DNA from: a phage
Sequence record: PZ534512.1
Length of the DNA: 64,000 bases
Strand: one strand, 5' to 3'
Shown: piece after piece, positions 38,847 through 47,839 of the stretch
How the letters are laid out: each line of letters opens with the position of its first letter
How positions within the stretch are numbered: position 1 is the stretch's first letter
The notes under the pieces: generated by a model
What the model saw: only the letters and a program-made list of their open reading frames with translations
Database searches by the model: none
What the model was told of the DNA's origin: nothing
Position numbers and translations under genes: made by a program

Positions 38847-39104
38847 ATGAAAACTTTCAAAGAGTTTGCTACAAAAACTGCTATCACTGAATCTTCTCAC
38901 GGTATGGAAGTAAAGCTTGGAATGGCTTTAGCTGAAGCTGAGCGTCTTTTCTCTCGTATTAAAGAACTTGCTGCTGCGGTCGATCCTTCGTCTTTTAAAG
39001 GAGACCAAACTAAAGTTAAAGCACTTTTAGCGTTATGCTCCGATGCAGGAGAAATTGCTAAAAATGGTTCTAAGATGAAGAAACGATTAGAAGATTTAAA
39101 ATAA
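38847..39104 (+). CDS. internal-protein-like small protein with capsid targeting sequence (IPI locus)
   Basis: N-terminus MKTFKEFATKTAITE resembles the T4 CTS (MKTYQEFIAE); sits at the ipI position after 57B behind its own early promoter. Confidence 0.6.
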   Translation: MKTFKEFATKTAITESSHGMEVKLGMALAEAERLFSRIKELAAAVDPSSFKGDQTKVKALLALCSDAGEIAKNGSKMKKRLEDLK

Positions 39105-40129: not shown

Positions 40130-40202
40130 TGGGAATTAGCCAAGTTGGTAAGGCACTGGATTTTGATTCCAGGATGCAAAGGTTCGAGTCCTTTATTCCC
40201 AG
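40130..40202 (+). tRNA. tRNA-Gln (anticodon TTG)
   Basis: Cloverleaf read by eye: acceptor TGGGAAT/ATTCCCA, anticodon loop TTTTGAT, T-arm GGTTCGAGTCC. Confidence 0.85.
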
Positions 40203-40203
40203 C

Positions 40204-40290
40204 GCGAGAATGGTCAAATTGGTAAAGGCACAGCACTTAAAATGCTGCGGAATGATTTCCTTGTGGGTTCGAGTCCCACTTCTCGTACCA
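40204..40290 (+). tRNA. tRNA-Leu (anticodon TAA), long variable arm, CCA encoded
   Basis: Acceptor GCGAGAA, anticodon loop CTTAAAA, T-arm GGTTCGAGTCC, 3' ACCA. Confidence 0.85.
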
Positions 40291-40296
40291 AAGTTT

Positions 40297-40368
<72 letters not shown>

Positions 40369-40380
40369 AAATTTAATTTA

Positions 40381-40454
40381 CTCCGTGTAGCTCAGTTTGG
40401 TAGAGCGTCTGCTTTGGGAGCAGAATGTCGTAGGTTCAAATCCTGCCACGGAGA
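40381..40454 (+). tRNA. tRNA-Pro (anticodon TGG)
   Basis: Acceptor CTCCGTG/CACGGAG, anticodon loop TTTGGGA, T-arm GGTTCAAATCC. Confidence 0.85.
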
Positions 40455-40456
40455 CT

Positions 40457-40543
40457 GGAGGCGTGGCAGAGTGGTTTAATGCACCGGTCTTGAAAACCGG
40501 CAGTCGCTCCGGCGACTCATAGGTTCAAATCCTATCGCCTCCG
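40457..40543 (+). tRNA. tRNA-Ser (anticodon TGA), long variable arm
   Basis: Acceptor GGAGGCG/CGCCTCC, anticodon loop CTTGAAA, T-arm GGTTCAAATCC. Confidence 0.85.
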
Positions 40544-40550
40544 TAATTTC

Positions 40551-40623
40551 GCTGATTTAGCTCAGTAGGTAGAGCAACTCACTTGTAATGAGGACGTCGG
40601 CGGTTCGATTCCGTCAATCAGCA
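40551..40623 (+). tRNA. tRNA-Thr (anticodon TGT)
   Basis: Acceptor GCTGATT/AATCAGC, anticodon loop CTTGTAA, T-arm GGTTCGATTCC. Confidence 0.85.
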
Positions 40624-40629
40624 TATCAA

Positions 40630-40701
40630 GGCCCTGTAGCTGGAAGGTTCAAGCAAGCGACTCATAATCGCCAGATGGTGGTTCAATTCCACCCAGGGCC
40701 A
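40630..40701 (+). tRNA. tRNA with CAT anticodon (T4 tRNA-Ile type reading AUA after modification, or Met)
   Basis: Acceptor GGCCCTG/CAGGGCC, anticodon loop CTCATAA, T-arm GGTTCAATTCC. Confidence 0.8.
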
Positions 40702-41411: not shown

Positions 41412-41488
<77 letters not shown>

Positions 41489-41804
41489 GACAAGAAGCCG
41501 GGTCGCTACCGGTAAGTCGTCGGACTGATGTTCCCTGAGTAAGGAATTGCGTTAATAATCTTTGCGTTTATTGATGCCCTCTTATATCACAGCAGAAACG
41601 GCGCACCGAATTATCGATTCGAGGAAATATCTTTGCCGTAAGCCGAGTAGCGTTTTTGACGGAACGTTCGGATATGGTCGAGATATGGCCTTTTAAAAAT
41701 ATTGAGTAGCGTCAACTGCTTGATAACCGGGTTCAAATCCCGGCGTTTCGTACAAACACTTGCCTTAGCAGGTGGAACCCCGACAAGGTTGCCGCAAGGC
41801 TTAG
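41489..41804 (+). ncRNA. ORF-free region after tRNA-Arg, probable stable small RNAs (T4 species 1/2, rnaC/rnaD equivalent)
   Basis: No ORF; tRNA-like T-arm element (CCGGGTTCAAATCCCGG); ends at a strong terminator; T4 encodes two stable RNAs at this position. Confidence 0.5.
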
Positions 41805-41832
41805 CCCCGACCGAAAGGTTGGGGCTTTTTAG
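41805..41832 (+). terminator. intrinsic terminator (10-bp stem, GAAA tetraloop, T-run)
   Basis: AGCCCCGACC-GAAA-GGTTGGGGCT followed by TTTTT. Confidence 0.8.
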
Positions 41833-41880
41833 TATAAATATAGTAGTATATTAAATCCACGAATTAAAACAGGAAATAAG

Positions 41881-42354
41881 ATGAAATCATATACTCAATT
41901 TTTAAATGAAGCGGTGTTAAATGAAGCATCTAGCACCGAAATTCAAGCTGTCGCAAAAGCAGCCATTGCAGCGGGTAAATATTCTTATAAAGATGCTTCT
42001 GATGAATCGCGATTCCAGTTCGCACGCGACATGAAAGCGGAAGGATTTACGGGAAATGCAGTTAGTATGGCCTGGAAAAGTTTAGTTGCTACTGGCGCTG
42101 CTTTTGCAAAGGCTTCGGGTAAACCTGCTCCTAAAGCAGATCCTAAAGTCGCACAAGAGAAAAATATTGTTAAAGGAATTATCTCCAAATATGAAGCTAT
42201 CCTTAAAGAGCTTTTAGTAATCAAAACTGAAGGCCAAAAACTAGCTCGTGCTTATAGTTTCAAAGATAACCCACATGCTCACTCTCTTGAGTATGTTGAA
42301 GACATTCAAAAAATTATTAAAGACCGCATTTGGTCTGCTAAACAAATCAAATAA
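41881..42354 (+). CDS. internal-protein-like protein with capsid targeting sequence (157 aa)
   Basis: N-terminus MKSYTQFLNEA resembles the T4 CTS; bracketed by near-identical terminator hairpins. Confidence 0.6.
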   Translation: MKSYTQFLNEAVLNEASSTEIQAVAKAAIAAGKYSYKDASDESRFQFARDMKAEGFTGNAVSMAWKSLVATGAAFAKASGKPAPKADPKVAQEKNIVKGIISKYEAILKELLVIKTEGQKLARAYSFKDNPHAHSLEYVEDIQKIIKDRIWSAKQIK

Positions 42355-42361
42355 CATTCTT

Positions 42362-42389
42362 AGCCCTAGCCGAAAGGTTGGGGCTTTTT
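42362..42389 (+). terminator. intrinsic terminator (near-copy of the one at 41805)
   Basis: AGCCCTAGCC-GAAA-GGTTGGGGCT followed by TTTTT. Confidence 0.8.
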
Positions 42390-42522
42390 GGTATCTAGGC
42401 CTTTCCAGGCCTCTCTAGACATCATTTAGTTTCTACCCTTTATAATATATTATCCTATCCTTTGATTTCCCCTCCCTGCCCTAGAATTCCTCAAAACTTT
42501 TTAAAAATTTTTTCACAAAACG

Positions 42523-42552
42523 GTTTACATCCTTGTCCTTCCATGGTACTAT
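42523..42552 (+). promoter_or_regulatory. T4-type early promoter
   Basis: GTTTAC -35 (42523-42528), 18-nt spacer, TACTAT -10 (42547-42552); upstream A/T-rich TTTTTCACAAAACG. Confidence 0.7.
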
Positions 42553-42595: not shown

Positions 42596-42859
42596 ATGGA
42601 TAATTACGGCGAACTGTTCAACTTCTTTATGAAATGTGTTTCAGAAGATTTTGGTCGTACAGTGAATGATATTAAAGTTATCGGTCCTGATCATCCGATG
42701 TTTGAAACTTATGCAGTAATGGGTAATGAAGATGGTCAGTGGTATACTGTAAAGGTTGTAATTAATATGTTCACGGCAGAAGGTTATGTTAAACTGTCTT
42801 CTAAAGTTTACCATGATAACGACGAAATCGCAGAAGAATATTTCAATAATATGAAATAA
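42596..42859 (+). CDS. hypothetical protein (87 aa)
   Basis: ATG after GGAGAA downstream of the early promoter; the ORF-track 5' extension begins at a TTG inside the promoter. Confidence 0.55.
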   Translation: MDNYGELFNFFMKCVSEDFGRTVNDIKVIGPDHPMFETYAVMGNEDGQWYTVKVVINMFTAEGYVKLSSKVYHDNDEIAEEYFNNMK

Positions 42860-47031: not shown

Positions 47032-47349
47032 ATGAAAACATATCAAGAATTTATTGCAGAATCTGCTGCAGGACAGCGTGTAGAAGGCGGTTATATCTGG
47101 ATTGAACAAGTTGAGCCGCCAAGTCGCACTTCTACAGGTAAATGGAAAATCACTGTTGATGGTCCTGGTGGTAAACGTAGGACTCTTAAAGAAATTAACG
47201 GGTACTATGAAGAAGCTCTTTCTGACGCGGGTACTTATATGATGCAAATCATGATTAAAAACCCAGAAAATCGTTTTGCGGCTAGAGTTTTCCGCCGTAT
47301 TGGAAATAAGCTTTATGATGCATATTCTAAAAACTTCCCTAAAGAATAA
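47032..47349 (+). CDS. internal protein with capsid targeting sequence (105 aa; ipIII/ipII locus)
   Basis: N-terminus MKTYQEFIAES equals the canonical T4 CTS; basic small protein downstream of e. Confidence 0.65.
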   Translation: MKTYQEFIAESAAGQRVEGGYIWIEQVEPPSRTSTGKWKITVDGPGGKRRTLKEINGYYEEALSDAGTYMMQIMIKNPENRFAARVFRRIGNKLYDAYSKNFPKE

Positions 47350-47365
47350 AAATTAAAGGATACAC

Positions 47366-47839
47366 ATGAAAACATATCAAGAATTTATTACTGAAGCAGC
47401 TATTAATTCTCAAATTATTGCTGAATCTTTTACTGATCTTTTGAAATTTAAAAAAGGTCAAAAAATCACTGCTGTATTGGATGATGGTACAGAAATTGAG
47501 ATGGATGTACAAGGATATAATTATGCAGTAGATGGAAAACTGTATAATAAATCTCATGCTAAATTTGATTCATTTGACGACTTTGTTAATACAGTTGAAG
47601 ATGAAAAAACTCGTCGATCCATTGCAACTGGTGATGCTAAGGTTCTTATGGCACATGGTCATGAACGCATTCGCGCTAAACAGAATAAAATGGGTGAAGA
47701 TAATTTTGCATTAGTTGGTTATCAATCTGGTAAACAAACTTATGGCTATCAACGTACTGCTACAATGTATAATAAAAATGGTAAAATTGCCTTTGTAAAT
47801 AGTAAAGGTTCTATTCAGTACGTTAAATCGTTCAAATAA
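47366..47839 (+). CDS. internal protein with capsid targeting sequence (157 aa; ipII/ipIII locus)
   Basis: N-terminus MKTYQEFITEA equals the canonical CTS. Confidence 0.65.
   Translation: MKTYQEFITEAAINSQIIAESFTDLLKFKKGQKITAVLDDGTEIEMDVQGYNYAVDGKLYNKSHAKFDSFDDFVNTVEDEKTRRSIATGDAKVLMAHGHERIRAKQNKMGEDNFALVGYQSGKQTYGYQRTATMYNKNGKIAFVNSKGSIQYVKSFK

Follow-up and report, generated by a model that had tools for sequence, protein, structure and literature searches.

Of all phage proteins, the injected internal proteins are those that host immunity encounters first. It is established that the T4-type internal proteins (Ips) are tagged with a capsid targeting sequence (CTS), that they are diverse, that their loci are polymorphic and repeat-flanked, and that they have an anti-restriction role. 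Ip1, Ip2 and Ip3 each inhibit a distinct GmrSD enzyme (PMC12373910), and a role in host range has been described for IPIII (PMC9391042). According to Repoila 1994 (cited in PMC2839356), the elements that flank canonical ip cassettes are ~70 bp long and contain an inverted repeat and an early promoter; PMC2839356 also mentions ">30 known IP variants" (Comeau 2007, as cited there). Mutagenesis of the IPIII leader attributed targeting mainly to residues 4 and 7 and processing to residues 8 and 10 (PMC9026906). The prohead protease gp21 cuts after (L/I)-x-E, as at IAE-10 and ITE-19, the sites in T4 being ITE/A in IPI and IAE/A in IPII and IPIII (cleavage points are marked by a slash throughout); the Alt sites ITE-6 and LTE-619 follow the same rule (PMC5694885). 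A second related system is the PeSL (promoter-early stem-loop) cassette, a mobile regulatory unit of T4-type phages (Arbiol et al. 2010, PMC2839356; Comeau et al. 2014, PMC4122927), for which a model of excision and reinsertion by recombination between motifs, with mini-circles, has been put forward (PMC2839356).

The subject of this report is a 157-aa ORF in a 64-kb stretch of phage DNA (the window), which is taken, with reasonable though incomplete confidence, to encode a T4 Ip-type internal protein of the head; the polymorphic site that it occupies, with the stable-RNA genes on one side and e.8 on the other, would be a third ip locus. With the T4-type Ips (Repoila et al. 1994; Mullaney & Black 1996; Silas et al. 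2025) it has in common a leader of the MKTYQEFIAE type, small size, basic character, a mature part unrelated to the others, a dispensable and variably present gene that lies on the "early" strand and is late-transcribed (here judged by motif), and a cassette flanked by repeated regulatory DNA. Unlike them, it occupies a third position, between rnaC and e.8, that is vacant in T2, T4 and T6; its flanks are strong GC-rich terminators followed by a late promoter, not an early promoter with a weak stem-loop; and its leader has a duplicated predicted cleavage site. The PeSL cassettes resemble it in holding a single small ORF between stem-loop repeats, in leaving one motif (chimeric in PeSL) at the empty site of relatives, and in the swapping of left and right variants. 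They differ in that the repeat at the present locus is a terminator devoid of any early promoter, with a late promoter right next to its left copy.

The entries RB32ORF133c, fD1 g140 and phrog_2280 represent the same gene, with 98% identity to the window protein, and none of them interprets the N-terminus as a CTS or places an ip locus at this site. The ORF is not called an Ip in any database record or accessible paper, and it could be among the ">30 IP variants" (Comeau 2007). A literature search by locus tag returned irrelevant matches only, the Karam-lab reviews make no mention of ip loci, and the leaders of the 157-aa ORF and of a 187-aa ORF described below do not occur in the supplements of Silas 2025. 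Judging from sequence comparison, the ORF probably represents a new Ip family, to which a paralogue is added, and its site would be a third ip locus besides the "two Ip loci" of the accessible literature.

Layout of the locus and its duplicated hairpins

The window is a segment of a Tequatrovirus (T4-like) genome, and its + strand corresponds to the T4 "early" strand; all features given below lie on this strand. The 1.8 kb surrounding the 157-aa ORF is 94-99% identical to hundreds of T4-like phages. A tRNA cluster at 40130-40701 is followed by segB and then by the final tRNA of the cluster, tRNA-Arg (UCU), at 41412-41488 (ARAGORN, Rfam). Homologues of the T4 stable RNAs occupy 41490-41752 and were recognized by near-identity to the T4 annotation, rnaD at ~41490-41607 and rnaC at ~41614-41752, boundaries that were taken over from T4 by eye. 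Rfam searches over the region returned tRNAs only. The tRNA gene at 40630-40701 was called tRNA-Met (CAT) by ARAGORN; the T4 record has tRNA-Ile at the same position.

The left terminator hairpin AGCCCCGACCGAAAGGTTGGGGCTTTTT (41803-41830; 10-bp stem, GAAA loop, T5) comes next, and directly after it lies the T4 late-promoter motif TATAAATA (41833-41840), 41 bp 5' of the ATG. An ORF of 157 aa starting MKSYTQFLNEA, picked out by a sequence-only reading of the window, was confirmed at 41881-42354; it begins MKSYTQFLNEAVLNEASS, belongs to phrog_2280 and is preceded by the Shine-Dalgarno sequence AGGAAA (41871-41876). Its placement right after the stable RNAs was likewise borne out, the order being tRNA-Arg, rnaD, rnaC, ORF. 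The right terminator hairpin AGCCCTAGCCGAAAGGTTGGGGCTTTTT (42362-42389) is the right copy of a direct repeat, and the conserved right-hand neighbour is the e.8 homologue at 42596-42859. A sigma-70/early-type promoter-like site at 42524-42552 is predicted to restart early transcription into the e.8 homologue, and annotations of fPS-2 and Lutter mark an early promoter at the corresponding place. No sigma-70-like early promoter was found between the left hairpin and the ORF. Late transcription of the ORF has support at the level of motifs, namely TATAAATA placed after a terminator with no early-type promoter between; just eight occurrences of this motif lie on the + strand of the 64 kb.

The sequence-only reading had described two near-identical terminators starting at 41805 and 42362. 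The duplication and the second start were correct, and the first hairpin starts 2 nt earlier, at 41803. Both copies have a 10-bp stem, a GAAA loop and a T-run, and they differ at 3 of 28 positions. In a pattern search of the 64 kb they were the sole matches (0 expected; 100 shuffles). Folding energies were -20.3 kcal/mol (z = -4.7) for the left copy and -18.3 kcal/mol (z = -3.5) for the right. The direct repeat reaches beyond the hairpins to ~36 bp (41800-41835 versus 42359-42394; 32 of 36 positions identical), and the RB32 GenBank record of 2006 already carries the note "flanked by 34 bp imperfect direct repeat". Inside or beside the two repeats in the window there is no sigma-70/early-like promoter, the left copy being followed by the late promoter. 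Hairpin variants beside the loop (GA, AG or TA) trade left and right places in different phages, as is expected if the repeat copies recombine. The left/right distribution of the loop-proximal variants CCGA, CCAG and CTAG differs among phages, and in Paracelsus both copies are identical; this uneven spread, seen in the sequences, suggests ongoing gene conversion between the repeats.

The same reading had noted that T4 has ip genes only after 57B and after e, and this agrees with the T4 annotation (ipI after 57B; ipIII and ipII after e). The 157-aa ORF, between rnaC and e.8, lies outside both of these described loci and so at a non-canonical position, as that reading had said. The canonical slots of the window are filled by an IpV homologue (38847), a 105-aa ORF with a CTS (47032) and an IpIV homologue (47366), and with these homologues and the other CTS-led ORFs this phage has at least four CTS-type ORFs in three loci. 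Location in the described ip loci is a positional habit, not a mechanistic requirement. The first of these occupants (38847-39104) is a homologue of the IpV annotated in PST, with 85 aa and a 15-residue leader ending ITE/S; the last (47366-47839; 157 aa) is a homologue of the IpIV annotated in PST. The 105-aa ORF (47032-47349) lies in the ipIII slot after e, has the perfect CTS MKTYQEFIAE/S and falls in phrog_3966, "unknown function"; from its sequence it is another internal-protein candidate missed by annotation.

The leader and the predicted mature protein

The predicted propeptide, MKSYTQFLNE/AVLNE/ (41881-41925), has Y4, F7, L8 and E10, with A after E10 as in IPI-III. Its BLOSUM62 score against MKTYQEFIAE is 30, the same as that of the window's IpV homologue. 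ORFs outside the IP group reach 20 at most, and the background, taken over the 474 ORFs of the window with an ATG start and 50 aa or more, has a mean of -1.7 (sd 7.5). The combination of Y/F4, F7, L/I8 and E10 occurs solely in the 157-aa ORF and in the canonical ip genes at 47032 and 47366, with 0.012 occurrences expected. The likeness to the CTS consensus that had been pointed out from the sequence thus held up in both the score and the four-position signature, which is shared with canonical ip genes only. With a narrow position matrix, derived from four canonical leaders, the ORF ranked 7th of 474. This matrix was set aside as over-fitted, the BLOSUM score and the test of functional positions being used instead; the rank does indicate that the leader is divergent.

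Apart from T5 and Q6, each departure from the T4 consensus recurs in an ORF at a canonical ip locus: Tegunavirus ORFs there have S3 and L8 (MKSYQEFITE, MKTYVEFLSE), and the T2 "internal head protein 7" has N9 (MKTFKEFINE/A). Q replaces the conserved E6 in the clade of the window phage. An alignment of seven diverse members (from Tequatrovirus, Mosigvirus, Jiaodavirus and Tegunavirus, and one metagenomic) has six invariant columns, three of which are F7, L8 and E10, and position 4 is Y or F throughout; the mature parts in the same alignment fall to 23-50% identity. This conservation of the leader across genera is the strongest argument that the N-terminus is a CTS, an argument made from sequence comparison.

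An L-x-E site of the gp21 type had also been proposed for the leader, and at motif level it is present as L8-N9-E10/A11, with L8 and E10 invariant. The ORF has two such motifs, the other being L13-N14-E15/A16, and the corresponding predicted mature N-termini are AVLNEASSTEIQAVAK (from A11) and ASSTEIQAVAK (from A16). Both LNE/A motifs are created by a 15-bp tandem duplication within the leader at 41902-41931 (TTAAATGAAGCGGTG / TTAAATGAAGCATCT). Mosigvirus and other relatives are without the duplication and have a leader of exactly 10 residues (MKSYAEFLTE/Q).

The predicted mature protein has 142-147 aa and a pI of about 9.5-9.6, versus 8.9-9.5 for T4 IPI-III. The AlphaFold model is all-helical (pLDDT 75), with residues 4-15 disordered (pLDDT <50). 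Sequence searches of Pfam, NCBIfam and PDB found nothing outside the protein's own family, Foldseek searches of viral and PDB structures returned no known fold, and there is no similarity to IPI* in sequence or fold. In BLASTP comparisons with IpIV and with the 187-aa ORF at most the leader aligned. A mature part with no detectable homologue or fold match is a trait typical of Ips. An exhaustive phmmer search over 1.8 billion representatives gave 11 matches only. Three long repetitive proteins among the phmmer candidates (P0017-19) were dropped, as they looked like low-complexity matches. In P0013, a 94-aa protein predicted on a 2.9-kb Logan contig, the N-terminal portion of Trna.3 runs into the final 31 residues of the 157-aa ORF; this fusion may be an assembly chimera or a natural variant from which the whole tRNA region has been deleted.

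In Yersinia phage fD1 (phiD1) the homologue g140 is 98.7% identical to the 157-aa protein. Table S3 of the fD1 study lists g140 as particle-associated at the strict threshold, in a preparation with many non-structural and host proteins; its neighbours g139 (the e.8 homologue) and g138 do not carry the particle-associated flag. In the fD1 virion proteome, 113-137 of the 277 proteins of the phage were listed along with 672 from the host, and DenV, NudE and lysozyme were among the proteins found; because the preparation was so unspecific, detection in it discriminates virion proteins weakly. The detection shows that g140 is expressed and is compatible with packaging, of which it is no proof. [quoted passage not shown]

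Occupancy of the site and its age

The interval between rnaC and e.8 in T4 holds one hairpin and no ORF. In a three-way alignment the T4 site corresponds to the left flank of the window, one hairpin and the right flank, and the window therefore differs from T4 by an exact unit of 559 bp made up of the late promoter, the ORF and the second hairpin. The site is also empty in T2, T6 and PST. The 157-aa ORF was found in 512 database records, once per genome in all of them and "hypothetical" in every one, and it is conserved over its full length in 468 records. Site states were read from a spread-out selection of records that match the T4 junction. The 559-bp cassette was the commonest state in this sample; the site was empty in T4, VEc74, G2540-3, SHFML-11, W143 and BF15, held a different cassette of ~685 bp in RB14, IME340 and G4498, and held both cassettes in tandem in Bas36/Paracelsus, PYps32T and ZN18. 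The site has thus been seen with 0, 1 or 2 cassettes.

The ~685-bp cassette encodes the 187-aa ORF, whose leader MKTYAEFLTE/AAK is CTS-like and which occurs in 165 records. A CTS-led alternative or tandem cassette is present at this site in RB14, G4498, Paracelsus and PhAPEC2. Comparison of the 157-aa and 187-aa ORFs by BLASTP and hhalign found similarity in the leader only; each ORF matches phrog_2280 over its full length. From these sequence relationships the two families are probably remote paralogues, bridged by paralogues in Tegunavirus. The 187-aa ORF was located at 517-1080 in L005, 637-1200 in L011 and 1801-2363 in L012, and RB69 ORF148c/149c is a frameshifted copy of it. Between RB14 (Tequatrovirus) and PhAPEC2 (Mosigvirus) the 187-aa ORF is ~98% identical; for the 157-aa ORF next to it the identity across the two genera drops to ~76%, a contrast suggestive of lateral exchange of the 187-aa cassette in recent times.

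In Mosigvirus PhAPEC2 the order is terminator, 154-aa ORF, terminator, 187-aa ORF, terminator, e.8. Jiaodavirus phiKp_22 has tRNAs, a terminator, TATAAATA and a 177-aa ORF with the leader MKFKEFLAE/A. In Tegunavirus fHe-Yen9-01 the tRNAs, a terminator and TATAAATA are followed by tandem paralogues of 189 aa (MLQYNEFLKE...) and 178 aa (MLEYSEFLKE...), which bridge the 157-aa and 187-aa families. The position after the tRNAs is shared by these genera, so the locus predates their divergence. Recombination between the terminator repeats had been proposed as the route by which the gene was inserted. The recombination part has support, the T4 state being exactly what one crossover would give; insertion is unsupported, since the locus looks ancestral. 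The related proposal of an additional gene inserted between the tRNAs and e found no support in a comparison of that interval, with homologues at the same position, behind a terminator and TATAAATA, in Mosigvirus, Jiaodavirus and Tegunavirus and 512 occupied records, and a recent insertion into this phage was rejected because of the cross-genus synteny. It is more likely, on sequence grounds, that T4, T2, T6 and PST lost an ancestral cassette by repeat recombination: cross-genus synteny and the occupied site as the majority state favour loss over gain. By analogy with the PeSL mini-circle model, deletion and insertion of the cassette would be formally reversible.

Weighing of the readings

If the ORF encodes an Ip, the transcript of the tRNA, rnaD and rnaC genes would end at the left hairpin and, late in infection, TATAAATA would drive a short monocistronic mRNA ending at the right hairpin. 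The leader MKSYTQFLNE(AVLNE), 10-15 residues long, would dock the protein on the prohead scaffolding core, as conservation of Y4 and F7 suggests. Cleavage by gp21 after L-N-E would then free a basic helical protein of ~15.5-16 kDa, which would remain in the head and be injected with the DNA. By analogy with Ip1-Ip3, the mature protein would then probably disarm a "first-response" host defence, for example a type IV restriction enzyme of the GmrSD type; this anti-defence role is the weakest step. At the DNA level, recombination between the 34-36-bp direct repeats would delete the cassette precisely and leave one hairpin, and the reverse reaction could reinstall it.

Against an Ip stand Q6, the rank of 7 among 474 in the narrow matrix, terminator repeats that are unlike canonical ip flanks, and the weak discrimination of the fD1 proteome. 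The first of these also suits an accessory protein that is expressed late, stays in the cytoplasm unpackaged and keeps its CTS-like N-terminus as a relic of ip descent or recombination, no longer functional. The unspecific fD1 proteome would fit such a protein, as would the annotations, all "hypothetical" in the databases and "unknown function" for phrog_2280. A relic would be expected to decay, yet in four genera it is at residues 4, 7, 8 and 10 that conservation is highest; the paralogous 187-aa cassette retains the leader too, and a late-only promoter insulated between two terminators suits morphogenetic timing. An unpackaged protein is accordingly regarded as unlikely. Somewhat less likely again is a minor protein associated with the prohead core or scaffold that is lost at maturation, by degradation or expulsion, as gp67, gp68 and the gp22 fragments are, and is not an injected effector. 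Entry by a CTS would look the same for such a protein, an extra L-K-E site lies at residue 110, and the long helices predicted at 88-124 and 132-154 resemble scaffold-like coiled segments. Core components, however, are not dispensable and variably present as this gene is (absent from T4, T2 and T6), peptides were found in preparations of mature fD1 particles, and the pattern of polymorphism is that of ip genes.

A chance ORF between two copies of a duplicated terminator, with no functional gene, might be entertained because short AT-rich phage DNA yields many ORFs. Full-length conservation in 468 records and across genera, together with detection of fD1 peptides by MS, effectively refutes this already; a Shine-Dalgarno sequence and a late promoter are present and a confident helical fold is predicted, and the idea is given hardly any weight. 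The Ip reading, which was preferred, has a wider form in which most natural T-even-type phages, spanning Tequatrovirus, Mosigvirus, Jiaodavirus and Tegunavirus, have a third, ancient Ip locus with two paralogous families of injected anti-defence proteins (157-aa and 187-aa). The chances of this wider form are judged to be even. It would account for the third locus having been overlooked, since in T2, T4, T6 and PST alike the site stands empty after deletion.

More than 500 sequenced phages carry the 157-aa family and 165 the 187-aa family; neither occurs in the three laboratory T-evens. Should the Ip reading be right, they would supply new candidates for anti-restriction or anti-defence activity and for host-range determinants in therapeutic T4-like phages, and the third-locus reading would make them new effectors against host defence, delivered by injection. 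The range of sequences that the CTS is known to tolerate would also widen (S3, Q6, L8, N9 and the duplicated cleavage site), which is relevant to the loading of cargo into T4 heads. The site itself is a clean natural example of cassette gain and loss via duplicated terminators.

In the 50-kb segment of fHe-Yen9-01 (L016), eight ORFs have a CTS-like leader and an (L/I)xE site, and one of the eight, a 52-aa ORF starting MKTYIEFINE, lies inside the tRNA region. Going by these sequences, the Ip repertoire of Tegunavirus appears larger and more scattered than that of T4.
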